From: an uncultured Gammaproteobacteria bacterium
Lineage (GTDB): Bacteria > Patescibacteriota > Patescibacteriia > Magasanikbacterales > UBA10003
Assembly (NCBI GenBank): GCA_964365025.1
Contig: CAYIOJ010000001.1
Coordinates: forward strand, 1 to 40,474
Reading direction: 5' to 3'
Length of the DNA stretch: 40,474 nt
Shown: piece by piece, positions 18,050 through 39,166 of the stretch
How positions within the stretch are numbered: position 1 is the first letter of the stretch
Layout of the letters: each line of letters opens with the position of its first letter
Made by a program: the position numbers and the translations under genes
The notes under the pieces: generated by a model
Databases searched by the model: none
What the model was told of the DNA's origin: nothing
The model's input: the letters and a program-made list of their open reading frames with translations, nothing else

Positions 18050-18943
18050 TTAAATCAGATCCGGTTCTTTTAAATTAACCTGTTTCACTGAAATTTTTTT
18101 ACCCGGCGCTGATTGTTTATACGGCCGATGGCTCCACGGCGTCCACCCATCTTTAACTGTTTTTTCTATATCCGCCTCGGACAAATGCAAATCCACCAAT
18201 TTAAAATCACCGCGTAAAAATTTGGGGGAACTAACTTTTTTTAATTTTTCCGCAACGCTTGAGGAAACCTTATCATAGCGATCGTGCGCGTTTTGCCGCT
18301 CCATGGGGATAGCCGCGCTGCAATTGGGGCAATATCTTTTTACCTGATCCATAAATTCATTGGGATTTTTGTTCCACCAGCCCTTTTCCAATGGATAACC
18401 ACCAGGACCGTCAAATAAGTAATCCTGAGCCGCCGCCACTTCGCAAAAAAATCCTCCTTTTGGAGTAATGGAAGCGGCCCAACGCCATTGGACCCAGCAA
18501 TTACCTATTAATCTCCACATCAATTCTTTATCATCCACAATATCGGTAGCGGCTAAAAGCAATGACTGATGTTCGCCAACATCTTCGTCTTTGTGGTCAT
18601 TATAAATAATTTTGTCAGCGTCAAATGTCTCTTTAATAATATCTTTATACTTATCCCAATTTTGGCCGTTAGTCCATAGAGCGCGCTGGCGACGATTGGT
18701 AATTTTTTCTTGTACCAGGCGACAAATCTCCGCGAATTGAGGATGCAGGGTCGGCTCACCGCCCATTATTCCTATCTCATGCGGATACCCTTCTAGCGAG
18801 TCTATTGCCATAGCAACCGTGTCTAAATCCATAAAAAACGGTTTTTTGTGATGACCAACAAACCTGGTGCAATTTGAACAAATCAAATTACAGGCGTTTG
18901 TTATCTCTATTTGAATTACCGGCATTCTATAAATTGGAATCAT
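18050..18943 (-). CDS. Radical SAM protein with extra C-terminal cysteines
   Basis: CNLICSNC (CxxxCxxC), MGGEPTLHP, WTNG; C-terminal CW..FFCE..CPNC. Confidence 0.9.
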   Translation of the reverse strand: MIPIYRMPVIQIEITNACNLICSNCTRFVGHHKKPFFMDLDTVAMAIDSLEGYPHEIGIMGGEPTLHPQFAEICRLVQEKITNRRQRALWTNGQNWDKYKDIIKETFDADKIIYNDHKDEDVGEHQSLLLAATDIVDDKELMWRLIGNCWVQWRWAASITPKGGFFCEVAAAQDYLFDGPGGYPLEKGWWNKNPNEFMDQVKRYCPNCSAAIPMERQNAHDRYDKVSSSVAEKLKKVSSPKFLRGDFKLVDLHLSEADIEKTVKDGWTPWSHRPYKQSAPGKKISVKQVNLKEPDLI

Positions 18944-18954
18944 ACAAAAATGAA

Positions 18955-20163
18955 TTATTTTTTATCTTCTGTCCCGCCACCCCAAACAGTATGTTTTAAT
19001 TTCCATTCGTCGTTGACCTTTTTCCATAAATGCGGCGGCCGATAAGAATCAACTATCTCCCAAAAATGTTTTTCCGTAATGTTCAGGTACTCTAAAAAAT
19101 CTTTAAAGTATTTTTTAGGAAATTCCCCGTCATAACGTTTTACTAAAGATACGCCTTCTTCGCGAGTTATGTGTCCATCGCGAATTTCATGAGCGGCATC
19201 AGAAGTACAGCGACCAATACCAAATTTGATATAGGCTAAATAAAAATGAAAACCATCGGTCCGATCATCAAGGCTCGCATATTTAGAATAGGTGCCTTCT
19301 GAACGACCGTCTTCGTTGGCGGTTAAACCGGTATATTTTTGGGCATAATAAAAATTTTCCTGTGGCACCCACTTGCGATAATAAGACAACCAATGCATTT
19401 GGATGTCCAATTTTTCTATTTCCTCCAAAGACGGCTGGCTATATAATTCAAAAGTTTTTGTCTTAATTTCCGCGTCAGAAAAAATGTCCATTTCTTTTCC
19501 CGCCGCCACCACCTTATCAACTCCCGCCCCCTTAAAATACAAATCTTCCCAATCCGAAACTGTTTCATATGGTTTATCAGCGTTTTTTAACGAGCCGCCA
19601 TATTCGATCTCGCCATTTTCTCCATAAAAAATTAAAGGAATTTTAAATTTTAAAGCCATGTGAAAAGCCATGGTTTTTTGTCCATAAGCAAAAGGTTCCC
19701 AGGCGTCACCCTTTAACTCAAACGCGGCTCGGGCTAATTTTCTATGTAGATCTCCATTAGGGTAACAAGAAATGACATCAAAACCGGACTTAACAAAATT
19801 GTTAAAATTTTTCCAACCGACATCAGTATAAATAAACGGCGCCCAAGTGACTGTTAGAGGATGCATGCCATATTTAGTTTTCAAATAATGGGCAGTGTAA
19901 CCGCTGTCTTTGCCGCCACTCCCTGGCACAATTACATCAAAACTGCCGTCATTAGAGCGATGTTTATCACACAAAACAGCTAATTCTTTTTCTCGTTCTT
20001 CCCAGTTTATCAGATGATGCTTTTTATACGCATATTCGCACGCGCTACATACTCCATTAGCATTAAAAGTAAGGCGCGGACGCTGATTGGAAACAACGCA
20101 AAGTTTACAAAATTTAACTTCTTTAGGTTGAGACAATAATTGTTTATCTAATTTTTGTAACAT
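18955..20163 (-). CDS. N-acetyl sugar amidotransferase (WbuX/PseA family)
   Basis: N-terminal CKLC..CSAC, PP-loop SGGKDS, YGENGE, EGTYSKYASLDD, KFGIGR. ATG 20163 preferred. Confidence 0.92.
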   Translation of the reverse strand: MLQKLDKQLLSQPKEVKFCKLCVVSNQRPRLTFNANGVCSACEYAYKKHHLINWEEREKELAVLCDKHRSNDGSFDVIVPGSGGKDSGYTAHYLKTKYGMHPLTVTWAPFIYTDVGWKNFNNFVKSGFDVISCYPNGDLHRKLARAAFELKGDAWEPFAYGQKTMAFHMALKFKIPLIFYGENGEIEYGGSLKNADKPYETVSDWEDLYFKGAGVDKVVAAGKEMDIFSDAEIKTKTFELYSQPSLEEIEKLDIQMHWLSYYRKWVPQENFYYAQKYTGLTANEDGRSEGTYSKYASLDDRTDGFHFYLAYIKFGIGRCTSDAAHEIRDGHITREEGVSLVKRYDGEFPKKYFKDFLEYLNITEKHFWEIVDSYRPPHLWKKVNDEWKLKHTVWGGGTEDKK

Positions 20164-20170
20164 ATAAATT

Positions 20171-20824
20171 CTAATTACTTTTTTCAATCAACTTAACAAA
20201 ATTATTAATAATAGCCAAACCAACTAAGCCGCTTTTTTCTGGATGAAACTGACAACCATAGATATTACCTTTTTTAATTGCCGAACAAAATTCATAACCT
20301 CCATAGACAGCCGTAGCCAAACAATCAACTTCGTCTTGCGGCTTTAAAATATAAGAGTGCACAAAATAGACCTCTTTTTCTTCTTGATTTTTCAAAATCG
20401 TGTCTTGCCATAAAACGGATTTTGGCGGCCGAATTTTATTCCAACCGATGTGAGGAATCTTTTCTTTTTCCGCCAGAACCGGAAAAGGCATTACTTGTCC
20501 GAAAATAATCCCCAAACCGGCGTATTCGCCAAATTCATAACCTTTTGATAAAAGCAGTTGAGCGCCGAGACAAATGCCCAAAATTGGAATATCTTTGAGG
20601 GCAACGCTTTTTAACACTTCTTCCAGACCGCGCAATTTTAAACCACGCATGCCCGCCTCAAAAGAACCAACCCCGGGCAAAATTATTGCTTGAGCTGATT
20701 TTATTTTGTCCGCTTCTTCGGTAATTTCCACTTCAACATCGCAAGCCTGTAAAGCCTTATTAATACTCTGCAAATTACCTACGCCATAATCTACGACAGT
20801 AATTTTTTTTGATTTTTCACTCAT
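20171..20824 (-). CDS. HisH-like glutamine amidotransferase subunit (WbuY type)
   Basis: DYGVGNL, LPGVGSF, GICLG (catalytic Cys), PHIGWN, YFVHSY, QFHPEKS. Confidence 0.92.
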   Translation of the reverse strand: MSEKSKKITVVDYGVGNLQSINKALQACDVEVEITEEADKIKSAQAIILPGVGSFEAGMRGLKLRGLEEVLKSVALKDIPILGICLGAQLLLSKGYEFGEYAGLGIIFGQVMPFPVLAEKEKIPHIGWNKIRPPKSVLWQDTILKNQEEKEVYFVHSYILKPQDEVDCLATAVYGGYEFCSAIKKGNIYGCQFHPEKSGLVGLAIINNFVKLIEKSN

Positions 20825-21582
20825 ACCGTCCGCACATTTATACCTTCTGTTTTTAAAAATGTTTTTAACTCTTTAATACTGTAATCCTGATAATGAAATA
20901 CTGAGGAGGCGGCTAGTGCGTCGGCCTTGCCTTCGTGTACTGCTTCTAAAAATGAATTCTTGTGTCCCACACCGCCATGAGCGATAACCGGCACGCCGCA
21001 AGCTTGAGAAATTTTTTTGATCAACTCTACATCATAACCGCGGCGGGTGCCATCACGATCAATGGAACAAATAAGTATCTCGCCGGCGCCCAACTCTACC
21101 CCTTTTTGTACCCACTCGTAAACATCTAAATTGGTCTTTTCTCTTCCGCCGTCGGTATAAACCAAATAATGCCCATCCGGCTGTTTTTTTGCCTCAATAA
21201 AAAGCGTGATACACTGCGAACCAAACTCTCTAGAGGCGGTGCGCAAAAATTCGGGATTTTTCGTGGCATAAGTATTTATAGCCACTTTGTCGGCGCCGGC
21301 GCGCAAGGCATTATTAATATCCTGAATTGTTCTAATGCCGCCGCCGGCTGTCACCGGAATAAAAACCTTTTCCGTTATTGTTTTTAAAAGAGTGAAGTCA
21401 AGGTTGCGTTGGTATAAACTGGCGACTATGTCCAAATAAATAAGTTCATCCGCACCCTCTTCATAGTAATGCAAAAACATTTCTTGCGGATTACCCACCA
21501 CGCGCAGAGCCTCCGTCTGCACGGGCTTCACCGCGTTTGGCCCTTTTATATTAAGCAAGGGAATAATACGAATGTTTTTCAT
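20821..21582 (-). CDS. HisF-like cyclase-fold subunit (WbuZ type)
   Basis: RIIPLLNI (catalytic Asp of RIIPCLD absent), GADEL, GGGIR, GADKVAINT, GAGEIL, SIDRDGT. ATG 21582 overlaps the upstream stop. Confidence 0.9.
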   Translation of the reverse strand: MKNIRIIPLLNIKGPNAVKPVQTEALRVVGNPQEMFLHYYEEGADELIYLDIVASLYQRNLDFTLLKTITEKVFIPVTAGGGIRTIQDINNALRAGADKVAINTYATKNPEFLRTASREFGSQCITLFIEAKKQPDGHYLVYTDGGREKTNLDVYEWVQKGVELGAGEILICSIDRDGTRRGYDVELIKKISQACGVPVIAHGGVGHKNSFLEAVHEGKADALAASSVFHYQDYSIKELKTFLKTEGINVRTV

Positions 21583-23591
21583 AGCCGCGTCCATACTGGC
21601 CACAGGTCTTTTGTATAGCCATCACGATAAATTATCTGCCAAGACAAATCTGAATCTTTATTATCGTCTTTTAATTTACTAAACATGGCCTCTTGTTCAA
21701 CAGTGAAGGAAACCGCATATTCAACAGATCCTGCAAAATCCGACAACGGACGGACTTCCTCGTTTGTTCCTCGCGACCAATTTGGGATATCATATTTTAA
21801 AGACACTGTTTTTTCTATGTTATTTTTTTCAAAAAAAACTCGTAAATCTCTAGTTGATAAAAATTTCTCCAAATCTTTTAGCATTTTATCAAATTCTTGG
21901 CTGTTTTGATGAACAACCAACAAGGCCTCTGCTCCTTTTATAGCCAGGGCCAAGCACGATGAAAACCTTTTAGATAACAATTCATATTTATATTTTCTTA
22001 ATAAATTGTCCCCTTTTTCACCTTTTAACAATGCGGAAAAATTGTCCTCTTGTTCATAAAACTTCAGTAGCTCTTCGCGGCTGGCAAACAATTCTTCACG
22101 CGTCTCTTTAATAAAATTTTCGTATTGGGCATTGATGTCATGGTAACTTTTAATATTTTGATGTATATTTAAAACCCACTCAAACAAATCGGCGCCGACT
22201 TCAAGCAAAAATTTCTTTAGAGGCAACAGTTCGGCGGAACTAAAGAAAGCGGCAATGACAAAACACAGTCCTCTTAAATCTATATAATCCTCAAACGACA
22301 TGTCTTTGGTGCCCACGATTACCTCTTCGGTATCCAGAATCTTTTTGCCGTCTATGTCGCTGAATTGTCTGGGTACCACGCGATGGCGCACTACATATTG
22401 AAACTCTCTCGCCTTTTCTTCTGCCGCCAAAGGAGTGCCGGCCAATTTCATTAAAGTAAGAACGACCACGGTTTGCACGCCTGAATTGATGACCTGACTA
22501 AGCGTTTTCAAAAATGTCTCTTTTGTCTCGCCAGGCAAATTCAAAATCAATTCTGTGGCAGTGGTATCTCCTCTTTGAGAAAGCACTTTTTTCTGAAAAT
22601 TAGTGTACTCTTCTAACGGGATATTCCTCCTGCAGATATTTTTTAAAACTTCTGGAGTCAGGGTCTGGATCGCTATACCCGGCTCAAAATCAACAATAGA
22701 CAACATCTCTAAAAGCTTTTGTGGATCCTTACCGGTGCTCAAATTAATATATTTAGGCCAATTGTATTTTTTTTGACTATCCCGAACTATCCGCGCCATT
22801 TCCATATCCTCATTATAAAAACCCATGTTACTGTTACTAAAAAATAAAAAAATGTCGGATTGCCCGGCTAAACGTTTGCCTATATATTCCATGTCTGCCT
22901 TAAAAAATTCCGGACTAAGAAAAAGCAATCTTGAGTTGTAAATGTCGCTGGCGTGACAAAAAGCGCAGTTAAACGGACAACCGCGCACCGTTTCCATGAG
23001 CGGATGATAACCGGCAACTAAAAATTTATCCAATATACCGCTGGCATAAATCGCGCCAAAAACATTAATGGAATCAAGCCGCGGCGCCGGCGCGCTTGAC
23101 AAGGTATATTCAAGAGTATCCGGATGAACGCTAAAAACTCCGGCTGGCGGGTTCCTCCTTAAATCAGACGCGCTCTCTCCGGTCATAAATCGTTTTACAA
23201 TATTCAATAAAGGAATTTCACCGTCATAGGCCACGGCTAAATCAACAAAATTATTAATTTTTAAATATTCCGCTCTGGCTTTGGGCGATGATTCCAAATT
23301 AGGCCCGCCGGCCACCACCAAACACTTGGGATTATTTTTTTTAGCCAAGCTGGCAAAATATAAATTCAACTGGCTGTTCCAGCTATATTGAGAAATACCG
23401 ACTACATCGGGAACCCAATCGGCGTTTTTTAAAACATCACTAATTTCATTGGGATTTTTAAATAATTTTATATCTAATTCACCAAGAATATTTTTTATAA
23501 GATAAGTAGCCAACAAACCAATACCCAAAGGTACGGTATTGCTATGCCCGCCGCGCGTTAAATGAACCGAATCTATTAAAGCTATTTTCAT
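21579..23591 (-). CDS. Cobalamin-binding radical SAM protein with long C-terminal extension
   Basis: PLGIGLLATY, PDVVGISQYSWN, VAGGPN, DGE (B12-binding domain); ETVRGCPFNCAFC; ELILNLPGET. ATG 23591 preferred. Confidence 0.9.
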   Translation of the reverse strand: MKIALIDSVHLTRGGHSNTVPLGIGLLATYLIKNILGELDIKLFKNPNEISDVLKNADWVPDVVGISQYSWNSQLNLYFASLAKKNNPKCLVVAGGPNLESSPKARAEYLKINNFVDLAVAYDGEIPLLNIVKRFMTGESASDLRRNPPAGVFSVHPDTLEYTLSSAPAPRLDSINVFGAIYASGILDKFLVAGYHPLMETVRGCPFNCAFCHASDIYNSRLLFLSPEFFKADMEYIGKRLAGQSDIFLFFSNSNMGFYNEDMEMARIVRDSQKKYNWPKYINLSTGKDPQKLLEMLSIVDFEPGIAIQTLTPEVLKNICRRNIPLEEYTNFQKKVLSQRGDTTATELILNLPGETKETFLKTLSQVINSGVQTVVVLTLMKLAGTPLAAEEKAREFQYVVRHRVVPRQFSDIDGKKILDTEEVIVGTKDMSFEDYIDLRGLCFVIAAFFSSAELLPLKKFLLEVGADLFEWVLNIHQNIKSYHDINAQYENFIKETREELFASREELLKFYEQEDNFSALLKGEKGDNLLRKYKYELLSKRFSSCLALAIKGAEALLVVHQNSQEFDKMLKDLEKFLSTRDLRVFFEKNNIEKTVSLKYDIPNWSRGTNEEVRPLSDFAGSVEYAVSFTVEQEAMFSKLKDDNKDSDLSWQIIYRDGYTKDLWPVWTRL

Positions 23592-23608
23592 AACATTACT
23601 TTTTAAAT

Positions 23609-24427
23609 TTAAAGCTCTATCTTGTCCCAACCCTCTTTGGATTTTCTAACAGCCCAAAAACCGTCTTTCATACTAACGCCATCATTGCCAAAAAATTCCT
23701 TTATAGCCAAAAAAACTCCCGGACAGCAATTTATTTTAGTGAGCGGATCTCTGGCGGCATTTTCTTCACTGTATTTTTTAAAAAATTCATCCAAATCATC
23801 GCGGGTTGTCATAATTGGTAGGTCATCTCCGCAAATGATTCCACCGATTTTACACAATTTTGAATAATTTTTCAAATCTTTGCTAACCTGGTTATAAGCG
23901 TGATCGCCATCAATATAAACAAAATCAAACTCATCTTCCTTTAATATTTCAGCCGTCTCATCACTAGTGCCTCTTATAGGAATAATGTAATTTTCTACTC
24001 CGCTTGCTCTTATGTTATACAAAAAAAATTTAAACATTTTATCTTTTGCAACAAGTTTTTTGTGTTCAGGAATATTTTCAGGTGACATCCATGTATCAAC
24101 GCAGTAAACTTTTCCCTTCTGATATTTTTTACAGAGAGACGCCCAAAGAATTGTAGAATGTCCGCCCCAAGAACCAACCTCAAGTACTTTATATGTTTGG
24201 CTCTCAGACTTTAATTCATTTTCCAATAATTTCTTCATCACTTCTAATCGCTCCAGCGGCTGCATACAAGCATCTAAATATGTCCCAAAGTAGGGTTTAT
24301 TAAAAAGACAGGCCGACTTAAAATAAATCCATCCATCTATTTTATAAAGAAGCATTCTTACTCTATAAGGTAAAAATAATAATGATGCCTTTCTGTTTAG
24401 CATATTCTTAATTCTAATTTTAAACAC
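23609..24427 (-). CDS. Class I SAM-dependent methyltransferase (Methyltransf_24-like)
   Basis: LEVGSWGGHST, CVDTW, FDFVYIDGDHAY, GGIICGDD. Alternative ATG at 24403. Confidence 0.9.
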   Translation of the reverse strand: MFKIRIKNMLNRKASLLFLPYRVRMLLYKIDGWIYFKSACLFNKPYFGTYLDACMQPLERLEVMKKLLENELKSESQTYKVLEVGSWGGHSTILWASLCKKYQKGKVYCVDTWMSPENIPEHKKLVAKDKMFKFFLYNIRASGVENYIIPIRGTSDETAEILKEDEFDFVYIDGDHAYNQVSKDLKNYSKLCKIGGIICGDDLPIMTTRDDLDEFFKKYSEENAARDPLTKINCCPGVFLAIKEFFGNDGVSMKDGFWAVRKSKEGWDKIEL

Positions 24428-24435
24428 CTTACTTG

Positions 24436-25464
24436 TTAATACACAGCGAGCAAACTATTCGCAACGCCATCAATATCAGATTCAACGGGCGAACCAATTA
24501 CAACATGGCAATCTGCGCAGATATTAATTTTTTTCCGCTCTCCTTTTAAATGTAACATTCTGAAATTGCGTAATTTTTTACCTCTCCAAATATCAACGAG
24601 ACTTTCTTTATTGACGTTGCCGATTATGACATTAAAACCCCAATCTATACAACAAACCGAAACAGAACCATTAAAATTTATCGCCATCGAATAAAATGGA
24701 TGGGGACAAACCTGCCTATCCATTTTTGACATGGTATTTGCATAAGCCGTGGCTGAAGAAATCCCCTGTCCTAAAGTAAAATCATACCCTTGTGAATTGC
24801 TTCTTCCATCTACCGGATTAATGTTTATGAAATCTGAAATACCGCTGAAATCATCTGTAAATTTTTTCTTTTCAAAATCCGACAAGCCCGTGTCAATTAA
24901 TTTAGCGTAAATTTTTAAACCGCTTTTTCTTTTTCTTTTTTCATTAAATAAATATTCAACATTTCTTCGAACGTGCTCATATTTGGTTGGTGTATTTGTA
25001 ACCTTTTTATAACCAGCATCATCCACATGCTCAATTGAAATTCGGATTGAATCAAGCCCCGCATCTATTAAGCCTCTGGCATCAAATTCATTTATCAGTG
25101 CCCCATTAGAAGTGATGCTAATGTTATTAGCGATGTCTTTTTTTTTGGCATAAGCGACCATTTTGACCAAATTCTTATTTAAGAACGGCTCACCGTCTTT
25201 ACACAAATTAATCTTTTCTAATTTTTTATCAAATTTCTGCACATCGTCTACTATTTTACAAAATAAATCAAAATTCATCATCCCATTCGGTCGAGCGGCT
25301 TTGGCAAGCATTTGCGGATGCCCGGTGGGACAAAAAGAACATTTAAAATTACAAACACTGCTGGGATCTATCAGGAGCGAAAGTGGCACTTCTAGCGGCA
25401 ACACTTCCGACAATTGCTTAAAATTGCACGGTTCATCAAGATGTTTTATTTTTTTTATGCCCAT
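24436..25464 (-). CDS. Radical SAM/SPASM-twitch domain protein
   Basis: CNFKCSFC, DGEPFLN, TSNG; C-terminal CPHPF..GSVSVCC..IGN..CADC. Confidence 0.92.
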   Translation of the reverse strand: MGIKKIKHLDEPCNFKQLSEVLPLEVPLSLLIDPSSVCNFKCSFCPTGHPQMLAKAARPNGMMNFDLFCKIVDDVQKFDKKLEKINLCKDGEPFLNKNLVKMVAYAKKKDIANNISITSNGALINEFDARGLIDAGLDSIRISIEHVDDAGYKKVTNTPTKYEHVRRNVEYLFNEKRKRKSGLKIYAKLIDTGLSDFEKKKFTDDFSGISDFININPVDGRSNSQGYDFTLGQGISSATAYANTMSKMDRQVCPHPFYSMAINFNGSVSVCCIDWGFNVIIGNVNKESLVDIWRGKKLRNFRMLHLKGERKKINICADCHVVIGSPVESDIDGVANSLLAVY

Positions 25465-25504
25465 ACAGACAATATCAAATTAATTATAAAACATTCGAAC
25501 AAAC

Positions 25505-26662: not shown

Positions 26663-26682
26663 AATAAAACTACTCTGCCAAT

Positions 26683-28146: not shown

Positions 28147-28162
28147 AATTGTGAGCGGACGG

Positions 28163-30091: not shown

Positions 30092-30107
30092 GCAAACTTC
30101 TTACTAT

Positions 30108-30140
30108 AAAAAGAATGGCCAGAGTTGGCCATTCTTTTTT
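30108..30140. terminator. Bidirectional intrinsic terminator
   Basis: AAAAAGAATGGCCA-GAGT-TGGCCATTCTTTTT, a perfect IR between convergent genes. Confidence 0.88.
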
Positions 30141-30149
30141 ATTTTGTCT

Positions 30150-30938: not shown

Positions 30939-30946
30939 ACGCTGTT

Positions 30947-32026
30947 TTATTTTATATAAAATCTCTTTGGAGTATCAACCGAGTGTCCCAAACTCATTTC
31001 CATTTTGGCATACTCAAAATCAGCCTCAGTCATCAACTTGGCCAGAGCTTTAAATGTCGTTTTCGGTTTCCAACCTAAAACATCGCGCGCTTTTGACGAA
31101 TCCCCCAACAATACGTCCACTTCATTCGGTCTAAAATAAATAGGATCCACCTCAATAATGATTTTGCCGGTTTTACGGTCTATGCCATTTTCTTTCAGTC
31201 CCTGGCCGACCCAGTCAATTTCCATGTCTAAGTTTTTTGCCACCTCTTCAATAAATTCACGTACGCTGTGATTTTCGCCAGTGGCAATCACAAAATCATC
31301 CGGCTCCTTGTTCTGTAAAATCATCCAAATTGCCTCTACATAATCTTTGGAATATCCCCAGTCTCTTTTCGCGTCTAAATTACCCAGTTTTAACACCTGC
31401 CGCGTCCCAACTTTTATTTGTGCCAAACCAAGAGTTATCTTACGGGTAACAAAATTCAAGCCCCTCCGAGGTGACTCATGATTAAACAAAATACCATTCG
31501 AGGCAAAAATCCCGTAACCATTGCGGAAAATCTTCGTTATGTGAAAAGCAAAAACTTTTGAAAGACCGTAGGGAGATTGCGGATTGAATGGTGTTTCTTC
31601 ATTTTGCGGCGTAGCCAAAACATTGCCGAACATTTCCGAGGAGCTGGCTTGATAAAATTTTACTGGTAAACGCAAATTACGGATGGTCTCTAAAATGCGT
31701 AAAGGGCCAAGTGCGTTGATATTGGCCGTGTACTCCGGCACATCAAAACTGACAGCCACGTGACTCATGGCGCCCAAATTATAAATTTCGTCCGGCTTAA
31801 TTTCGTTGATTATTCGCACCAAGTTAGAGCTGTCAGATAAATCAGCGTAAGTCATCTCAATGTTGGGCTCATCAACTTCTTCGCACAGATGATCAATCCG
31901 CTGAGTATTTGGCGAACTGCTACGGCGCTTAAGCCCAAATACCTGGTAGCCTTTTTCTAAAAGAAATTCAGATAAATACGACCCGTCTTGTCCGGTTGTT
32001 CCCGTTATCAATGCTTTTTTAGACAT
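30947..32026 (-). CDS. gmd: GDP-mannose 4,6-dehydratase
   Basis: [58 protein letters not shown]. Confidence 0.97.
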
Positions 32027-32062
32027 ACTTTATTTAAAAAATATCTTATTAATCAATTAATT

Positions 32063-32443
32063 TTATTTCCCCAATTGTTTTTTAATTATCTTCCGATATG
32101 GCTCATAGTATCGCGCCATGTAACGACCAGCAAACCATTCTATCATCACCGTGTCAATTATAAATTTATAAAGATGGGGGGTATTGGGCGGGATAATGAT
32201 TAATTCATTTGGCCCATACTGTTTAGAAATGTCTTTATTTTTTTGGCGCAAAGTTAATTTTATTTTTCCTTTCAAAACAACATTATACTGTTCTGTCGGA
32301 TGATAATCACCAGCCCTGTAACCTCCGGCATTAGTGAAGATAACGTTAAACTCTGTTCCTTTAAATTTATTTATGAATATTTCTCCTCGCCGGTCGCTAA
32401 AAAATTTATAACTTAACTCTTTGTTTTCTTTTTGGACTGTCAT
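32063..32443 (-). CDS. Cupin domain protein (sugar-nucleotide isomerase/epimerase-like)
   Basis: SDRRG, RAGDYH, VLKG, IIPPNTPH; 126 aa beta-rich. Confidence 0.78.
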   Translation of the reverse strand: MTVQKENKELSYKFFSDRRGEIFINKFKGTEFNVIFTNAGGYRAGDYHPTEQYNVVLKGKIKLTLRQKNKDISKQYGPNELIIIPPNTPHLYKFIIDTVMIEWFAGRYMARYYEPYRKIIKKQLGK

Positions 32444-32457
32444 AATTAAACAGATAT

Positions 32458-33663
32458 TTAAATATCTTTCTTGGCGTTAGCAACAGCTTCTTTCATCCTT
32501 TGGTCTAATTCGGCAATTCTGCTTCTATGGTTTAATTCCGGTTCATCCATTCTTATATAACACTGCTTTGAAAGTTTTTCCCGCAACTGATAATCGTCCA
32601 CCAATTGTTCAATTTTCCGCGCCAAATCATCTGAATCGTTATCTTTAAAATAAAGCGCGCTACCACGAGCAACCCATTCCAATCCCCCGCCTCCGGGAAT
32701 AATTGACGGCAAACCGAACATCATGGCTGTCATCAAAGACATGGCCGTCAAATCTTTTCTCCAATGGGCCTGAACATAAATGTCCGCCTGCTTAAAACGA
32801 TTATAAAGATCCTCTTTTGTCATCCATCCGGGTAATTCCACATACGGCTCAAGATGCAAATCATGAATCATTTTATGGACAAACTTTTCTTCCGACCCGT
32901 CTCCACCTAAAACCAGATGAAAATTATCCTTGTTTTTAACCTTAGAAAAAGCAGTCAAAATAAGATCAAATCCTTTTCCCGGGGCCATTTTACTTGAATA
33001 TAAAAGAGTATAAGGCCCGTGCTTTTTATTTCTTTTACTGTAAGTATCTTCAGAAATATCATACTTTTTCATCAGTCCGCGATAATCAAACGGATCGCCA
33101 TAAATAAAACAGCGGATGTCTATCTTCATGCGAAAATTTCTATAACTTTCCGTTAAACAGGAATTAGCAAAACCAATGATATCAATATAATCAGTCAATG
33201 GCATTAAAAAGCAACGTTCAAAATTAAAACGAACAAACTTTTTAAACTTCCGCAATAAACCATCTCTTTTGTGAGGAAACAGGTAGGAAACATTTCCCGG
33301 CCAAGCAGTAAGCTCGCGATTAAAATAACCCACCACAGGAATTTTTCCGCCCAGTAACCGATAAAGACCGGCGCCATATAAAAAAACTTGACCATCTACA
33401 AAAAAAATATCGGCTTGATTGGAATATTTTCTTAAAACCCTAAAAACGCCTTTTTGTATTCCCAACATTCGACCTGATTTGACATCCTCTTCAATTACGG
33501 TATAAGGCAATTTTAAGGGGATATTATTCGATTTGGGATGAGTTGTGCAAACAAAAATCTCATGACCCAAATCTTGCAGGGTTCTATAGGTTAAATCGTA
33601 TTCATCGGTTGTTCCGCCTGAAGTTAAAAAATTTAATTTAGGCGTAACAAAAAATATTTTCAT
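32458..33663 (-). CDS. Glycosyltransferase family 4 (GT-B)
   Basis: SGG N-terminal loop, LGHEI, KGFD, GDG, LPGW, ADIYV; the ExF..E motif is degenerate (DLTAMSLMTAM). Confidence 0.85.
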   Translation of the reverse strand: MKIFFVTPKLNFLTSGGTTDEYDLTYRTLQDLGHEIFVCTTHPKSNNIPLKLPYTVIEEDVKSGRMLGIQKGVFRVLRKYSNQADIFFVDGQVFLYGAGLYRLLGGKIPVVGYFNRELTAWPGNVSYLFPHKRDGLLRKFKKFVRFNFERCFLMPLTDYIDIIGFANSCLTESYRNFRMKIDIRCFIYGDPFDYRGLMKKYDISEDTYSKRNKKHGPYTLLYSSKMAPGKGFDLILTAFSKVKNKDNFHLVLGGDGSEEKFVHKMIHDLHLEPYVELPGWMTKEDLYNRFKQADIYVQAHWRKDLTAMSLMTAMMFGLPSIIPGGGGLEWVARGSALYFKDNDSDDLARKIEQLVDDYQLREKLSKQCYIRMDEPELNHRSRIAELDQRMKEAVANAKKDI

Positions 33664-33726
33664 ATGATTAGTCTATTTTAGCAAAAACTATGCAATTTTG
33701 CAATCACTCAAATACCCACAAATACA

Positions 33727-35493
33727 TCATTGATAAACATAAACCGGCCCAAATTCCCCTACCAGACGCGCAAAACCAAATTGTTTCACAAGCGTCACGG
33801 ATAATGGATCTTCGCTCATTAAATAATCTATCTTGTATTTTTTCAATTCTGTCAAAAAATCTTTGCCAAGAAACGCGCGATATTCAGCCGCAACCTGTTT
33901 GACTGTTTCTTTAAATTTCTTATCTGGCATTCTAGACAAACTTTCCTTCCAATCTCCGGTATAATGAGTGCCGGACCATTGTAAATTCTCTCGTAAAAAT
34001 CGTTCGGCATTTTCTGCTGTCGCCCCGCTCAATGCCATCCAAATCATAGAATTATGTTTTGCGCGTTCAAGCGGCACGGAGCTTAAACCAAACAGGTTGG
34101 TCATATAAACATTACACTGCGTAAAAGCCGGTATCAAGAAAGCCAACTTTTCTTCCTTGTTTTCTTTTATTAAAACAACGCAATCTTTTTCGCCATTAAC
34201 ACGTAGCCAACTAAGTACTGCGTGATATTTTTGAAGTTCCCGCATCCCTTCTACTCCATACTTATAACTCTTGGCCACCGCCGTTCCATAAACAAAAAAA
34301 ACCAAAATAACTAAAAAATTCATAACCAAAATGATTCTCGGTAATTTGCTTTTAAAAACTAGGTATAGTGGAACCATGGCGGCTACAATGGCCAGGGGAG
34401 CTGTATATTGAGAAAAATGATAATACCAAACTGTTCTACCGGTGATTATTTGCTGATTTAAAGCAATAAATCCGCCCAAAATAAAAGATAAACAAAACCA
34501 CCAAACGCGCCCGAGTTTCTCTCCATTTTTTTTTCTGCTTAAACATTCATAAAAAAATGTCGGCAAAAAAATCAACAAAGCGAGCGTTAAAATTTTATTA
34601 AAAACCGGTTGATGAGTGAACGACATGCCGTAAGACGCTGAAGCTAGCCCTTCTTGGCCAATCCCAACAGAAAAAACTCTATAAAAATACGGTAACAACA
34701 AACCAAATCCGAGCAGTCCGACAAAAAAAATCGCTCGCGCTGTTAACCAGTCTTTCTTTAGCAAAAAAACAAACATGAGCACCGCCCAAACAGAGGCGGC
34801 CGTTCCCCAACTAAAAAAATATCCGACCATTAAAGACAAAACCATACCCGCCATTACACCGCTGTAAATTCGTCGTTTGTTGTTATTACTATTTACTAGC
34901 GACCAAAGCAACAACAAAAAACAAAATAACAAAATCGCTCCTGTTATTGGGTTCACCGGCCTGACCCAAGAAAGATAAGCGGCGTGTTTGTATTGATCGC
35001 TCACTATGGCCCAAACGATTTTAAGGGCTGGCAAGTCTAAACTTAAAATAACTAACAATCCGCAGGCGATCGCGTTGATTCTACCTCGAAAATCAACGAC
35101 CTTGGTTAATTTACACATCAAAAGATAAACCAAAAAAAATAGAATTGCCGGTAACAAAAAACCATTGAATAAGACGGCTGTTTCAGCAGCTGAAAGCCCT
35201 AATACAAAAGCCGGAATCGCGTAAAAATATTCTCCAATCGGCAAAACCAAAGACGGCAAATTTTTATATTCAAAAATATAAGGGGCGTTAACCCAGCCGT
35301 GCCCATCCAATATCTCTTGAATCCTGACGGTATAAAAAATATTGTCGTTCACATAAAAAAATGGAATGCCGCGATATTCACTACCCAAGGATTTTATGGC
35401 CAAAAATTGCGGCGCAATGGAAAAAGCGCCAACCACGAAAAAGCAAATGATGGCCAAATAGTGATTTCTAATTAGAGTACTTATTTTTGTCAT
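33727..35493 (-). CDS. Polytopic membrane protein, GT-C-fold glycosyltransferase-like
   Basis: 588 aa with about 11-13 TM segments. First external loop NDNIFYTVRIQEILDG..P..FEYK; soluble C-terminal domain ending KYKIDY..VYVY. Confidence 0.6.
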   Translation of the reverse strand: MTKISTLIRNHYLAIICFFVVGAFSIAPQFLAIKSLGSEYRGIPFFYVNDNIFYTVRIQEILDGHGWVNAPYIFEYKNLPSLVLPIGEYFYAIPAFVLGLSAAETAVLFNGFLLPAILFFLVYLLMCKLTKVVDFRGRINAIACGLLVILSLDLPALKIVWAIVSDQYKHAAYLSWVRPVNPITGAILLFCFLLLLWSLVNSNNNKRRIYSGVMAGMVLSLMVGYFFSWGTAASVWAVLMFVFLLKKDWLTARAIFFVGLLGFGLLLPYFYRVFSVGIGQEGLASASYGMSFTHQPVFNKILTLALLIFLPTFFYECLSRKKNGEKLGRVWWFCLSFILGGFIALNQQIITGRTVWYYHFSQYTAPLAIVAAMVPLYLVFKSKLPRIILVMNFLVILVFFVYGTAVAKSYKYGVEGMRELQKYHAVLSWLRVNGEKDCVVLIKENKEEKLAFLIPAFTQCNVYMTNLFGLSSVPLERAKHNSMIWMALSGATAENAERFLRENLQWSGTHYTGDWKESLSRMPDKKFKETVKQVAAEYRAFLGKDFLTELKKYKIDYLMSEDPLSVTLVKQFGFARLVGEFGPVYVYQ

Positions 35494-36794
35494 ATAAATT
35501 GCGCCGAAAATTTGTCAAAAACACTGACAACATATTTAAGCATTTCTTTCGTCAAACCGGGGTAGCATCCTATCCAAAAAGTATTATTCATTACTGCATC
35601 TGTGTTGATTAAATCACCAACAACCCTATAATTCACCTTACAATCAATAAAATATGGCTGTTTTAAAATATTACCAGCGAACAAATATCTAGTGCCTATT
35701 TTTGCCTTTTGCAGATATTGAATAATCTGATTCCTGTCAAATGGCGCTTTCTCTTTTACGGTCAACAGAAATCCGAACCAACTTGGGTCGGCCTTATCTT
35801 GCCACGATGGTAGAATAAAATATTTTTCGTATTTTTTTAGATGATCGTACAAAAACTCAAAATTTTCTTTCCGTTTTTTAATAAAACCGTCCAATTTTTC
35901 CAATTGAGCCACGCCGATGGCGGCCTGTATGTCCGTCAACTTTAAATTATAACCAATCTCTGAATAAATATATTTATGGTCATAACCCAATGGCAATTCT
36001 CCCAACTGCCACTCAAATCTTTTACCACAAGTGTTGTCGTGTCCGGTTTTACACCAACAATCCCGGCCCCAATCACGCATTGACCTAATAATTTTATTAA
36101 GTACCGTGTCATTTGTAAAAAGCGCGCCGCCTTCACCCATAGTTATGTGATGAGCCGGATAAAAACTACTAGTTGAAATATGACCGAATGTGCCGGTAAA
36201 TTTTCCATTGTATTTGGAGCCCAGCGCGTCGCAATTATCTTCTATTAACCAAAGATTATTTTTCTGACAAATTTTGACAAGAGCGGCCAAATCAAACGGG
36301 TTGCCCAAGGTGTGGGCGATAAACACCGCTCTCGTTTTTGGCCCGATGGCTTTTTTAAATTTTTCAACATTAATATTATAACTACCCAAATCCACATCCA
36401 CAAATACCGGTGTCAAATTATTCTGGATTATAGGATTGACCGTGCTGGGAAAACCGGCGGCCACGGTTATGACTTCATCGCCATTTTTTAGCCTTTTATC
36501 TCCCAAACGCGCGGATTTCAAGGCAGACAGAGCCAGAAGATTGGCTGATGAACCGGAATTTACCAAAATGGCATATTTTATCCCGAGCCATTTACTTATT
36601 TTTTCTTCAAACAAATCACTAAACCGTCCTTCGGTCCACCAACCGTCTAAAATTGCCTCGGTAGCCAAAAAAATCTCCTGCTGATCAAATATTTTACCGG
36701 CGACAGGTATAAATGACTGCCCGGGGACAAACTTTTTTGGCAAAAATTTTGTCTTATACTCATCCAAAAGCGTCTGATGTAAATTTTTATTCAT
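35490..36794 (-). CDS. rfbH: RfbH/DdhC-type NDP-4-keto-6-deoxyhexose 3-dehydrase
   Basis: NSGSSANL, AHTLGNPFD, IEDNCDALG, SFYPAHHITMGEGG (His in place of PLP Lys), RDWGRDCWC..NTC, YDHKY. ATG 36794 preferred. Confidence 0.93.
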   Translation of the reverse strand: MNKNLHQTLLDEYKTKFLPKKFVPGQSFIPVAGKIFDQQEIFLATEAILDGWWTEGRFSDLFEEKISKWLGIKYAILVNSGSSANLLALSALKSARLGDKRLKNGDEVITVAAGFPSTVNPIIQNNLTPVFVDVDLGSYNINVEKFKKAIGPKTRAVFIAHTLGNPFDLAALVKICQKNNLWLIEDNCDALGSKYNGKFTGTFGHISTSSFYPAHHITMGEGGALFTNDTVLNKIIRSMRDWGRDCWCKTGHDNTCGKRFEWQLGELPLGYDHKYIYSEIGYNLKLTDIQAAIGVAQLEKLDGFIKKRKENFEFLYDHLKKYEKYFILPSWQDKADPSWFGFLLTVKEKAPFDRNQIIQYLQKAKIGTRYLFAGNILKQPYFIDCKVNYRVVGDLINTDAVMNNTFWIGCYPGLTKEMLKYVVSVFDKFSAQFI

Positions 36795-36799
36795 AAAAT

Positions 36800-37405
36800 T
36801 TATTCTTTCACACAAGTGATAAAAATACCATTAACCGGAATGTGCGCCAAATCGTTTCGCGTTTCATGTGCCACATTGTTGAATGCCTGGCGCGCAAGAT
36901 TTAAATAACTTTCTTTATCACGAACATGTTTACCACGATCCAGTGACAAAACTACTTTCGAGATTAATCCCTCATCAACCGAGCGGCACCCATCGCAAGT
37001 TACCAATCTACCTCCCAGCTTCAAGCATTTCTTGGCCAATTTGAACAAATCGATAGCTTCACCATCATTTAAATGATGTAAAACATTATTTGCCAAAACT
37101 ATATCAAAGCCGATGTTGGGGATACTTGTCTCGCTTAATTCTTGACAAAAAAATTCTCCACGATCGCCGTATTTTATTTTCGCCTCATTAATATACTTAG
37201 GACTTAAATCAAATCCATAATATCTAATTTGGGGCAAAAAATCAAGAATATCTGCTGGTCCGCAACCTATATCCAATATCGCGCCGCCTTCAACTGGTTT
37301 AACATATTTATCAACATATTCCTGAGTATGTTTTTTGTTTCTAACTAAATTTTGAAGCAACTTATAAATTGACGGATAAATTAAAATAGACCTTAAATCT
37401 AACAT
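36800..37405 (-). CDS. Class I SAM-dependent methyltransferase
   Basis: LDIGCGPA, GFDLS, FDIV..VLHHL, LKLGG, LDRG. ATG 37405 preferred. Confidence 0.9.
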   Translation of the reverse strand: MLDLRSILIYPSIYKLLQNLVRNKKHTQEYVDKYVKPVEGGAILDIGCGPADILDFLPQIRYYGFDLSPKYINEAKIKYGDRGEFFCQELSETSIPNIGFDIVLANNVLHHLNDGEAIDLFKLAKKCLKLGGRLVTCDGCRSVDEGLISKVVLSLDRGKHVRDKESYLNLARQAFNNVAHETRNDLAHIPVNGIFITCVKE

Positions 37406-37431
37406 AGCATAAATCAAAGATACTTTTGATT

Positions 37432-37460
37432 ATTTTATCATTTTTATCTTAAAATAGCAA
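37432..37460 (-). promoter_or_regulatory. sigma70-type internal promoter
   Basis: Minus strand TTGCTA-17 nt-TAAAAT with extended TG. Confidence 0.6.
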
Positions 37461-37636
37461 TGCCAGCGTTATTCATCACTATCTTACGGATTGACCGATA
37501 TCTGATAATCCTTGCTTCCAATCTGTCATCATCTTAAAACAATAACTGGATCGTTAAGTGTCGCAATCATACCGACAGGCAACTTCTATTGTGAGGGCAA
37601 GACTTTCTATTTTAATCAATTTGTGTCCAGTTGTAA

Positions 37637-39166
37637 TTATTTCTTAAGCACTTTGCGTCCCAAAAAATAAGTCCCTAAATAATATCTAATGACTCTTACC
37701 CGTCTAAAAATACAAAATTCGAGCGAAGGGGAAAAATAAAAAAGCGCCTGAGATAATTTGGCGAGTAATAAATCCGATTTTAAAAGCAAAAAAACACCCG
37801 GGTGCTTCTTATTAAAAACTGACCCGTGAAAAATGTGTTTAAATGTTAAATAAAAATCCGCAATCTCTTTCTTTAAATCATCTGAAAAATTAAAGAAGTT
37901 TTTATCAAGCGCGTATAAAGAGCTGACTTCCAAAATATTCGTAAAATATGCCCTCTGTTTAAAATAATAATCGGCATCCAAATACCATTCTTTCGCCTCT
38001 GGCGTTTCATCATAATAAATTGTGCCGGGTGTAGGACTTAATACGGTTGCCAGTAGTCTGTTGGTGTATTTTGTTAAACCCAAAAATGCTTCTTTCTCTT
38101 TTCTTATCAGTTCTGTATTTTCAAAAGGAAATCCAACCAGTATAAAGACTGCTGGGACTATGTTTTGCTTAGTGAACAAAGGAAAAACTTTATGAACAAG
38201 CTCAACCGATGTGTTTTTGTTTATTCCTTTAAGCGAGTCGGGCACCAGGCGCTCTAAACCAAAATTAAACCGGTAGAATCCGGCTTCTTTCATCAGGCGT
38301 ATGAGATCTTCATCGACGGTTTCTAGCTTTGTCTGACAAGAAAAGGTGATTTTTTTGTTTAAACCAGACTCAATAATTTTATTACAGAATTTAACAACTC
38401 GTTCGCGATTAAGCGTAAAATTATTATCGCAAAAAATTAAATAAAAAACTTTATATTTATCATATAAATCAACCACATTTTTAAATAGCCAATCCGCTGA
38501 TGCCATTCTTTTATCGTCTCTTTGGATTGAATCGGAGCAAAAATTACATCCAAAAGGACAGCCTCTTTGCCCGGTGATATTAAATAATCCGGGTTCATTT
38601 TTTGTTTTAATGTAATCATCGATGTTAAAAAGTTGATAATTTACAATAGGAACATCGTCTAAATTTTCTAAGGCTGGGAATTCTTTGGCAAAATGAAAAC
38701 TTCCGTCTTCTTTGATAAAGGAAACGCCGGGAATCAATTTGAGATCTTGTTTATACTGCGTCCTCTGATTCTCTATGTGCTTTAAAAGCGGAAGAATAAC
38801 TTTTTCGCCATCCCTATTGACTACCACGTCAACTCCGTGCCGCAGTGCTTCTTCAAAAGATCTCCTCATGTGGATTCCACCCGCAATTATCGGCATATTT
38901 GGAAAAATGGATTTAAATTTTAGAATTTGCCGATAAGTTTCATAGGCATTTTGGATTGATATGGCATAGGCCAGAACATCCGGCTTATATAAATTTATGG
39001 CTCTCAAAAAATCTTTTTCAGTATAATACTTGTAATGAGTATTATTATCTATAACTTTAACATCGTGTCCGGCATTGTGAGCTATCGTTGCGACAATCCC
39101 CACCCCAACACCAAGCACAGAGGTGGAAGATGTTAAACAAGAATTTCTGATAAATAATATCTTCAT
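37637..39166 (-). CDS. Cobalamin-binding radical SAM protein
   Basis: GHDVKVID, PDVL, IAGGIH, DGE; QRGCPFGCNFC; DNNFT, GLE, GFPFE, PTPGT. Confidence 0.92.
   Translation of the reverse strand: MKILFIRNSCLTSSTSVLGVGVGIVATIAHNAGHDVKVIDNNTHYKYYTEKDFLRAINLYKPDVLAYAISIQNAYETYRQILKFKSIFPNMPIIAGGIHMRRSFEEALRHGVDVVVNRDGEKVILPLLKHIENQRTQYKQDLKLIPGVSFIKEDGSFHFAKEFPALENLDDVPIVNYQLFNIDDYIKTKNEPGLFNITGQRGCPFGCNFCSDSIQRDDKRMASADWLFKNVVDLYDKYKVFYLIFCDNNFTLNRERVVKFCNKIIESGLNKKITFSCQTKLETVDEDLIRLMKEAGFYRFNFGLERLVPDSLKGINKNTSVELVHKVFPLFTKQNIVPAVFILVGFPFENTELIRKEKEAFLGLTKYTNRLLATVLSPTPGTIYYDETPEAKEWYLDADYYFKQRAYFTNILEVSSLYALDKNFFNFSDDLKKEIADFYLTFKHIFHGSVFNKKHPGVFLLLKSDLLLAKLSQALFYFSPSLEFCIFRRVRVIRYYLGTYFLGRKVLKK

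Follow-up and report, generated by a model that had tools for sequence, protein, structure and literature searches.

The stretch of DNA analysed here (the window) comprises 40,474 nt, positions 1 to 40,474 of the forward strand of contig CAYIOJ010000001.1 in assembly GCA_964365025.1. It carries two co-directional operons of sugar genes in which radical S-adenosylmethionine (SAM) enzymes, some with a B12-binding type domain, and methyltransferases are interspersed. The source is labelled as an uncultured Gammaproteobacteria bacterium and has the GTDB lineage Patescibacteriota; Patescibacteriia; Magasanikbacterales; UBA10003. The genome, rated 99.8% complete, comprises 64 contigs with 1,008,712 bases in total, and the window takes up the initial 40 kb of a contig 107 kb long.

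Domains were assigned to the 36 open reading frames (ORFs) of the window by a Pfam scan with cut-offs of 29.5 bits for Radical_SAM (PF04055) and 32.1 bits for B12-binding (PF02310), and families were called with NCBIfam models at their curated cut-offs. Enzymes of 683 and 297 amino acids (aa) were modelled with AlphaFold2 (AF2), the models were searched against the PDB with Foldseek, and sequence alignments were made with phmmer. The five radical SAM and four methyltransferase genes of the preliminary description were all recovered at their positions between 18050 and 39166 in the ORF listing and by Pfam. These nine genes outnumber the glycosyltransferases of the same span, as had been claimed: there are two, a GT4 gene at 32458 and a KpsS-like gene at 28598 (five glycosyltransferases in the whole window). 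All five radical SAM proteins contain the CxxxCxxC motif and score above the PF04055 cut-off, which places them in the superfamily.

Operon 1 consists of 19 co-directional genes on the minus strand running from 28411 to 9170, with all 18 junctions overlapping or no wider than 40 nt. It opens with a helix-turn-helix (HTH) gene, followed by genes for a 501-aa B12-domain radical SAM enzyme, a Methyltransf_23 protein, a 342-aa twitch/SPASM radical SAM enzyme and a Methyltransf_24 protein. The middle of the operon encodes a 683-aa B12-type radical SAM enzyme, HisF, HisH, WbuX, a 297-aa radical SAM enzyme and a GT2 glycosyltransferase. The operon ends with genes for a cytidine monophosphate (CMP)-sugar synthetase, a Gfo/Idh/MocA oxidoreductase, NeuB, NeuC, a hexapeptide acetyltransferase, an aminotransferase, a PseB/PglF-like dehydratase and Wzx. 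The four radical SAM and two methyltransferase genes of this operon are therein interleaved with sugar-nucleotide genes, as first described, and share the operon with a complete nonulosonic acid (NulO) pathway, the WbuX/HisH/HisF genes, the GT2 gene and the flippase gene.

The NulO pathway genes (10683..17181, minus strand; Pfam, NCBIfam) encode the 4,6-dehydratase, aminotransferase, acetyltransferase, NeuC, NeuB, oxidoreductase and CMP-synthetase. NeuC scored 384.1 bits against TIGR03568 (cut-off 235.9) and NeuB 436.9 bits against TIGR03569 (cut-off 399.65). The models of the pseudaminic acid pathway all scored below their NCBIfam cut-offs (PseB 312 of 407.75, PseC 338 of 423.5, PseI 297.9 of 340.25, PseF 163.1 of 205.7), and so did the LegC model. 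A pseudaminic acid pathway was dropped because the Pse models were not reached and NeuC is present. The three genes of the acetamidino-forming WbuX/HisH/HisF-like trio (18955..21603, minus strand; NCBIfam) overlap one another. WbuX reached 364.5 bits against TIGR03573 (cut-off 203.2) and HisH 201.7 bits against TIGR01855 (cut-off 105.4), and the third gene fell just below its cut-offs as WbuZ (266.5 of 299.7) and as HisF (287.9 of 294.55). We read operon 1 as a legionaminic acid-type NulO pathway with acetamidino modification, of a stereoisomer that is not readable from sequence. Legionella pneumophila serogroup 1 O-antigen and Campylobacter flagellin Leg5Am7Ac were used as comparators, which we take to be acetamidino-type legionaminic acids. 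Operon 1 has the same set of dehydratase, aminotransferase, N-acetyltransferase, NeuC-type, NeuB-type, CMP-synthetase and WbuX/HisH/HisF genes as legionaminic acid pathways with an acetamidino group. The literature search found no radical SAM or B12-type enzymes in the known legionaminic acid pathways, whereas here four radical SAM and two methyltransferase genes are inserted. The GT2 gene (17187..18041, minus strand; Glycos_transf_2 73.7 bits) lies 8 nt from the 297-aa radical SAM gene. The last gene (9170..10657, minus strand; Polysacc_synt_3 226.5 bits), 25 nt from the preceding one, encodes the Wzx-type flippase of the multidrug/oligosaccharidyl-lipid/polysaccharide (MOP) class.

The 683-aa enzyme (21579..23630, minus strand; Radical_SAM 44.2 bits; C218/222/225) is a B12-type radical SAM protein with the three-domain build of TokK and CysS and a candidate sequential C-methylase. 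Its closest solved relatives by sequence were CysS (2.2e-27) and TokK (2.1e-25). The AF2 model had a mean predicted local distance difference test score (pLDDT) of 92.7 and a predicted template modelling score (pTM) of 0.92. In the Foldseek search TokK ranked first (query and target TM-scores, TMq 0.73-0.75 and TMt 0.75-0.77; 722-736 columns) and CysS second (TMq 0.69-0.70, TMt 0.75-0.76), followed by OxsB (0.46-0.47), TsrM (0.42-0.44), AprD4 (0.41) and MgmA (0.39). Because the match to TokK and CysS spans ∼720 columns, the C-terminal domain is common to these proteins too, and not the core alone.

TokK and ThnK, which act on the carbapenem C6 side chain, and CysS, which acts on cystobactamid alkoxy groups, are sequential cobalamin-dependent radical SAM C-methylases (7KDX/7KDY, 9N1B-D). 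The 683-aa enzyme resembles TokK and CysS in its Rossmann cobalamin domain, radical SAM barrel, helical C-terminal domain and CxxxCxxC motif. It differs in that identity in the structural alignment is ∼19%, that its gene lies within a nonulosonic acid operon and not in an antibiotic cluster, and that no carrier- or pantetheine-linked substrate is evident; we infer a CMP or uridine diphosphate (UDP) handle. In the phmmer alignments W84 of the 683-aa enzyme aligned with Trp76 of TokK and Trp75 of CysS, and W84 was invariant in all 69 aligned members of the family. In the accessible text of bioRxiv 10.1101/2021.07.10.451909 and of PMC12846815, Trp76/Trp75 sits 3.8 Å beneath the cobalt, and a Trp below the cobalt is common to TokK, ThnK and CysS but not to TsrM, Fom3, PhpK and GenK. 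The 683-aa enzyme would work like the TokK/CysS group because both its modelled fold and this Trp match; yet it belongs to no curated subfamily, since the KedN5 model NF033712 was not reached (112.7 bits, cut-off 700).

A genome scan with one genome per species gave 79 loci, with full-length relatives of the 683-aa enzyme at seven only (L001-L007; 29-44% identical). Five of the seven (L002, L003, L004, L005 and L007) lie among NeuB, NeuC, dehydratase, aminotransferase or CMP-synthetase genes. The hosts of these five are Magnetovibrio, an acidobacterium, members of the Parcubacteria and Saccharibacteria, and a metagenome-assembled genome titled Ca. Taenariivivens baikalensis. L003 carries WbuX, HisH and HisF as the window does; L001 is a 2.9-kb fragment. 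A metagenome scan with the alignment of the seven sequences as query returned 80 loci. Homologues of NeuB, NeuC or CMP-synthetase were found at 21 of these, at 13 of the 29 with flanks of 9 kb or more and at 12 of the 19 with 12 kb or more. The control was 72 generic B12 radical SAM loci from the genome scan, with NulO genes at 4 of the 56 long ones. One metagenome locus, L112, has the gene order of L003 and is therefore probably the same DNA. The link of the 683-aa family to NulO and CMP-sugar genes is strong and not universal, since some long loci are without a marker. The closest relative (L111, 49% identical) lies among CTP_transf_3, CBS-nucleotidyltransferase, aminotransferase, formyltransferase and two methyltransferase genes, with four further radical SAM genes (one B12-domain, one SPASM). 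A role of the operon 1 enzymes in glycan synthesis, as originally suggested, is well supported by the packing of the operon and by the way the 683-aa family tracks NulO genes across phyla, and best for the 683-aa enzyme itself. A mapping of the enzymes to characterised non-glycan functions, which the preliminary description had named as refuting it, was not seen for any of the five radical SAM proteins at the NCBIfam cut-offs.

Two metagenome loci of the 683-aa family have other surroundings. L145 (∼4.4-16.7 kb) holds a family member on a contig with Phage_capsid_2 and dTDP-sugar genes, and the capsid gene suggests a phage-borne copy. At L157 a family member lies by a phosphoenolpyruvate (PEP) mutase gene, a thiamine diphosphate (ThDP) decarboxylase-like gene, two NTP_transf_3 genes and sulfatase genes, a context that by its gene content appears phosphonate-type rather than NulO.

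The other two B12-domain enzymes are the 501-aa enzyme (26683..28188, minus strand; B12-binding 65.7, Radical_SAM 71.2 bits; C246/250/253) and the 509-aa enzyme (37637..39166, minus strand; B12-binding 48.4, Radical_SAM 56.7 bits; C203/207/210). The preliminary description had counted three cobalamin-binding enzymes. At the PF02310 cut-off the count holds for these two; the 683-aa enzyme is below it and is backed by its fold and by its orthologues, in which the domain scores 35-43 bits. Cobalamin binding is a domain-level prediction for all three and plausible for the 683-aa enzyme, which alone among them has signature-level support, from W84. Against the NCBIfam models (cut-offs in brackets) the 501-aa enzyme scored 182.6 (575) for Sden_1168 (NF038361), 175.5 (481) for BchE (TIGR02026) and 96.9 (500) for AprD4 (NF033070), and the 509-aa enzyme 143.3 for BchE, 72 for Sden_1168 and 54.1 for AprD4. 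None of these cut-offs was reached, nor were those of HpnJ and HpnR. The family of the 509-aa enzyme is small (48 clusters at E<=1e-70, 33-78% identical, none functionally named), and a protein-cluster search with the 501-aa enzyme matched only generically named B12 radical SAM clusters. Among the B12 loci fetched from candidate phyla radiation (CPR) bacteria, the best relatives of the 501-aa enzyme reached 36% identity and those of the 509-aa enzyme 28%.

The remaining radical SAM enzymes resemble twitch-type enzymes. The 342-aa enzyme (24436..25464, minus strand; Radical_SAM 61, SPASM 63.2 bits; C38/42/45) has a twitch/SPASM domain, is BtrN-like in its C-terminal part and MoaA-like in its N-terminal part, and scored 68.3 bits against the NF033640 twitch model (cut-off 170). 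Its Cys253/271/316/319 align with Cys169/187/232/235 of BtrN, which we take to be the auxiliary-cluster ligands, in a numbering that PMC10337720 did not confirm. Relatives at most 36% identical were found in 18 of 400 other Patescibacteria genomes, and CPR relatives adjoin CMP-synthetase, methyltransferase, PseB-like, NeuC-like, aminotransferase or B12 radical SAM genes.

The 297-aa enzyme (18050..18943, minus strand; Radical_SAM 37.5 bits; C18/22/25) has a twitch-dehydrogenase-like fold in its AF2 model (pLDDT 91.3). The best fold matches were SpeY (TMq 0.47-0.53) and BtrN, and the matches are moderate overall (0.39-0.53). Its family comprises 1319 proteins at E<=1e-5. The best 119 of these are 58-84% identical, come from CPR bacteria, Nanoarchaeota, Omnitrophica, Victivallaceae, Alphaproteobacteria and SAR324, and are all named 'radical SAM protein'; the closest among them (84%) belong to other Magasanikbacteria. 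The enzyme was found in one of the 400 other sampled Patescibacteria genomes, as a partial copy. BtrN (butirosin) and SpeY (spectinomycin) are twitch-domain aminocyclitol dehydrogenases, and the likeness lies in the Cys set of the 342-aa enzyme, the fold of the 297-aa enzyme and the sugar-like pathways. The differences are that no aminocyclitol genes are present here, that the N-terminal half of the 342-aa enzyme is nearer to MoaA and that the fold match of the 297-aa enzyme is moderate. Relatives of the 297-aa enzyme (37-41% identical) were also seen in phage head-gene modules (portal, coat protein) of three viral contigs, L191, L192 and L193. On L191 the relative directly follows a Methyltransf_24 gene, and on L192 it lies inside a 597-aa frame that is followed by a Methyltransf_23 gene.

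Both methyltransferases of operon 1 were assigned by Pfam. The Methyltransf_24 (CmcI/TylF-like) gene (23609..24427, minus strand) overlaps the 683-aa gene by 22 nt, and the Methyltransf_23 gene (25505..26662, minus strand) encodes a 385-aa protein with a Cys-rich N-terminus. The first gene of the operon (28163..28411, minus strand; HTH_17 46.2 bits) encodes a small excisionase/MerR-like protein and shares 26 nt with the beginning of the 501-aa radical SAM gene. Relatives of this protein, 46-63% identical, occur in NulO/radical SAM clusters of other organisms (L002 at ∼12221, L043 at ∼4804, L136 at 7842-8054 and L202 at ∼15.2 kb), and the gene may be a dedicated regulator of such operons. Divergent from operon 1 lies the gene of a KpsS-like capsule-synthesis protein (28598..30091, plus strand; Capsule_synth 31.5 bits), a candidate ulosonic acid transferase; at L140 a 26%-identical relative lies between NeuC and a B12 enzyme.

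Operon 2 runs from 40196 to 30150, co-directional with operon 1, and encodes in order a PgfS/ArnC-like GT2, the 509-aa B12 radical SAM enzyme, a Methyltransf_25 protein, an E1 3-dehydrase, a 588-aa membrane protein, a GT4, a cupin, Gmd and an FkbM protein. The genes from FkbM to Methyltransf_25 (30150..37417, minus strand; Pfam, NCBIfam) form a deoxyhexose branch in which the GDP-mannose 4,6-dehydratase Gmd scored 505.5 bits against TIGR01472 (cut-off 415). The FkbM (30150-30938) and Methyltransf_25 (36800-37417) methyltransferases and the GT4 (start 32458), all on the minus strand, were assigned by Pfam. The GT2 (39249..40196, minus strand; Glycos_transf_2 96.3 bits) is polyprenyl-phosphate sugar synthase-like and is below the cut-off of the PgfS model (184.8 of 500). 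The E1-type 3-dehydrase (35490-36815, minus strand) reached 697.7 bits against RfbH PRK15407 (cut-off 423), matched E1 of the CDP-3,6-dideoxyhexose pathway of Yersinia pseudotuberculosis (DdhC/RfbH, 3BCX) at 1.4e-169 and keeps the His220 equivalent and the C-x-C-x7-C motif. A ColD-type GDP-sugar dehydrase was rejected for this gene, as ColD matched only at about 1e-57. An E3 reductase partner is expected in the E1 system; a classical one was not found here, because the genome search for Fer2-domain proteins gave none. The 588-aa polytopic membrane protein (33727-35493, minus strand), between the GT4 and E1 genes, had no Pfam match even at E<=1 and may act as a polymerase, a ligase or a GT-C-like transferase. 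Part of operon 2 is common within the order, as in a genome of the same order (G192, locus L228) the genes for RfbH (76% identical) and Gmd (59%) are near neighbours, and a B12-domain frame of 736 aa lies not far away.

At lower coordinates of the window lie genes for an initiating polyprenyl glycosylphosphotransferase (4111..5475, plus strand; Bac_transf 193.6 bits; TIGR03025 346.5, cut-off 295.55), an NAD-dependent sugar epimerase (5567-6481, minus strand; Epimerase 203.5 bits) and a UDP-glucose-type dehydrogenase (6478-7863, minus strand; three UDPG_MGDP_dh domains; TIGR03026 266.2, cut-off 189.8). Positions 2001-4000 have a GC content of 0.54, against about 0.40-0.43 around them, and the ORFs of 312 and 356 aa at 1739-3939 (plus strand) match no Pfam family. 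Past the window, at positions 40-50 kb of the contig, lie further sugar genes, which encode a TylF-like methylase, a ThDP enzyme and a fusion of NeuB with a cupin; the glycan region is therefore continuous. The contig holds 13 of the 18 PF04055 matches of the genome (binomial P 1.2e-9) and all six PF02310 matches, and five of the 18 PF04055 matches lie inside the 21-kb span (binomial P 2.7e-5). Given these binomial values, the clustering of radical SAM genes is not due to chance.

The genome was searched for Fe-S assembly and electron carriers, a check that the preliminary description had proposed and that gave a mixed outcome: NifS, NifU and a ferredoxin are present, and SufBD and flavodoxin had no match. 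NifS, NifU and a 62-aa single-cluster ferredoxin are encoded side by side at 17037-19131 of contig C14 (L194), are the only Fe-S assembly or small electron-carrier genes found in the genome, and by their annotation would serve to build and reduce Fe-S clusters. Among 400 other sampled Patescibacteria genomes, 111 (the unpublished G154 is one of these) encode B12-domain proteins, 78 of the 111 above the cut-off. The six copies in this genome are near the top of the range, whose maximum is nine. Homologues of the sugar or methyltransferase genes of the window were found in 21 of the 40 stretches fetched around Patescibacteria B12-domain genes, and NeuB-family genes in 16 of 60 further genomes belonging to the class.

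Nonulosonic acids (sialic, legionaminic and pseudaminic acids) are found on capsules, O-antigens, flagella and S-layers, where they shape host, phage and immune recognition; phage evasion or host recognition, put forward in the preliminary description, may be a role of the glycan here. B12-dependent radical SAM enzymes methylate unactivated carbon or phosphorus or rearrange rings, mostly in natural-product pathways. The gene content, operon packing, fold, conserved Trp and synteny described above are probably best accounted for by a two-operon surface-glycan island in which the TokK/CysS-like 683-aa enzyme C-methylates a NulO and the remaining enzymes carry out other tailoring. Operon 1 would produce a CMP-activated 5,7-diamino-tetradeoxy-nonulosonic acid of legionaminic type, of which WbuX/HisH/HisF would turn one N-acetyl into an acetamidino group. 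At the [4Fe-4S]/SAM site of the 683-aa enzyme an unactivated sp3 carbon would be stripped of a hydrogen, and methylcobalamin, positioned over Trp84, would donate a methyl group to that carbon, possibly repeatedly. The substrate would most likely be the NulO or its nucleotide-activated form, and the corrinoid would be imported from outside the cell. The two class I methyltransferases of operon 1 would add O- or N-methyl groups, and the 297- and 342-aa enzymes would oxidise or epimerise a sugar hydroxyl without NAD, like BtrN and SpeY. One further radical step, of a kind that is not assignable, would fall to the 501-aa B12-type enzyme. The tailored sugar would then be transferred by the GT2 and exported by Wzx on a lipid carrier. 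Operon 2 may provide a methylated deoxyhexose through Gmd, E1, FkbM, Methyltransf_25 and the 509-aa enzyme together with its transferases.

A number of observations weigh against C-methylation of a NulO by the 683-aa enzyme, or against a shared pathway for the whole set. The B12-binding match of the 683-aa enzyme itself, at 25.2 bits, is below the cut-off. The active-site Trp215 of TokK is not conserved: the 683-aa enzyme has H226-A227 after C225, and the consensus of the 69 family sequences has no Trp at this position either. At the position of the gate Trp271 of CysS the aligned residue is N296. TokK and CysS act on pantetheine-linked substrates, whereas Pfam identified no carrier-protein domain in the 36 window ORFs. 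L006, whose sequence begins 0.5 kb upstream of the gene, has no sugar genes downstream. Seven of the 19 long metagenome loci are without a NulO marker. Across the nine marker-less long loci that were scanned with Pfam, the neighbours included CTP_transf_3 (two loci), PEP mutase (one), glycosyltransferases (one), a phage capsid gene together with dTDP-sugar genes (one) and PAP2 (two). The methyltransferases and the 342-, 501- and 509-aa enzymes are not co-conserved with the 683-aa enzyme, save weakly at L007, L111 and L147, and the 297-aa enzyme was in none of the NulO loci fetched. The locus was present in seven DNA sequencing runs (two studies; the four runs naming an organism are groundwater metagenomes) and in no RNA run.

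Cofactor supply is a further point on this side. CPR bacteria generally lack cobalamin synthesis, and it is unlikely in this genome, where the search gave no match for the cobalamin riboswitch, BtuC-type permease, NrdJ, PduO adenosyltransferase, EcfT or CobS. A route of B12 uptake, which the preliminary description had expected from scavenging, was therefore not found (BtuC-type permease, EcfT, riboswitch). A B12-dependent step would stand without visible cofactor supply, since no marker of corrinoid synthesis, uptake or sensing was detected.

This bears on the strongest alternative, to which we give a smaller though appreciable chance: that the B12-like domains of the 501- and 509-aa enzymes, and conceivably of the 683-aa enzyme, bind no cobalamin, and that the enzymes perform AprD4-type diol dehydration, oxidation or rearrangement of sugars. 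The island would then need no vitamin B12, in line with a genome without markers of its synthesis, uptake, adenosylation or riboswitch control. The B12-like domain of AprD4 is not known to carry cobalamin, and such non-binders share the fold. AprD4 was the best solved match of both enzymes (3.1e-18 for the 501-aa and 4.1e-12 for the 509-aa enzyme), a result unfavourable to cobalamin chemistry, and the deoxysugar genes Gmd and E1 neighbour the 509-aa gene. The match is confined to the radical SAM core (residues 240-438 of the 501-aa and 190-394 of the 509-aa enzyme), however, and the AprD4 model scores both enzymes under the BchE and P-methylase models. The AprD4/AprD3 system (apramycin C3' deoxygenation; AprD4 is a radical SAM diol dehydratase) has an N-terminal Rossmann-like domain and a sugar substrate (probable here) in common with the 501- and 509-aa enzymes, and differs in that no AprD3-like partner was identified here. 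The B12-binding scores of the two enzymes are well over the Pfam cut-off, and for the 683-aa enzyme the invariant Trp, which lies beneath cobalt in TokK and CysS, argues for cobalamin. The accessible text of the cobalamin-domain review PMC13331322 gives no sequence rule that divides cobalamin binders from non-binders.

It is improbable that the island is recently acquired and partly non-functional cargo, in which the B12-type enzymes idle without corrinoid and the classical sugar steps alone run. Such an origin would fit the GC content of 0.35-0.40 over 10-40 kb, against about 0.44 in most contigs, and the failure to find B12 supply genes. It would also fit the distribution within the lineage: the one genome of the same family sampled had no 297-aa or B12-domain match and a weak partial 342-aa match (4.7e-11), and the genomes of the same order lacked both radical SAM queries (297- and 342-aa), with a B12-domain match in four of nine. 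Against it, the open frames of all nine tailoring genes are intact, as are the cluster motifs, and it is other Magasanikbacteria that hold the closest relatives of the 297-aa enzyme (84%). The spread of B12-domain proteins over 111 of 400 other Patescibacteria genomes is hard to reconcile with useless enzymes.

We dismiss as very improbable an accidental location of the radical SAM and methyltransferase genes among sugar genes while acting on lipid, peptide (as in RiPPs, peptides that ribosomes make and that are modified after translation) or RNA, because the weak similarity to RiPP maturases, lipid B12 radical SAM enzymes, hopanoid methylases and tRNA enzymes is sub-threshold, with no radical SAM protein reaching the cut-off of any characterised NCBIfam family, tRNA and lipid families included, and, although the 297-aa relatives in phage head modules lack recognised sugar genes save one epimerase (L193), the tailoring genes overlap or abut sugar genes, Pfam identified no carrier protein, lipid gene or RiPP-type transporter in the 36 ORFs (short precursor peptides were not searched for), the 683-aa NulO linkage recurs in unrelated phyla above the control background, and CPR relatives of the 342-aa enzyme lie by nucleotide-sugar genes.

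C-methylation of a NulO by the 683-aa enzyme may extend further, although we put this forward only tentatively and consider it rather doubtful. Repeated methylation of the legionaminic-type sugar would give ethyl- or isopropyl-type branches, for example on the N-acyl group, an O-methyl group or the C9 methyl, and so an undescribed class of C-alkylated NulO, with B12 taken from host or community by an unrecognised importer. Such a surface chemistry would rely on outside B12, because neither corrinoid synthesis nor a recognisable uptake gene was found in the genome. To our knowledge, the NulO decorations known so far comprise N-acyl, O-acetyl and O- or N-methyl groups, and ordinary enzymes make all of them. 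A literature search, which left most subscription journals outside its coverage, returned no description of radical SAM or cobalamin enzymes tailoring nonulosonic, legionaminic or pseudaminic acids, and nothing joining CPR/Patescibacteria, B12/cobalamin and radical SAM. A species-specific phasome table for Campylobacter (PMC6321876) includes radical SAM genes that are phase-variable, in the company of genes for methyltransferases and formyltransferases.

The 683-aa enzyme is a concrete, testable enzyme. A B12-type radical methylase in the NulO operons of several phyla would, if true, add carbon-carbon bond formation to NulO decoration. In this organism one glycan island takes about a tenth of a 1-Mb CPR genome. 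The concentration of 13 of 18 radical SAM genes and of all B12-domain genes in it, with no visible corrinoid supply, points to surface chemistry that is strictly anaerobic and to a CPR cell that may depend on partner organisms for a cofactor.

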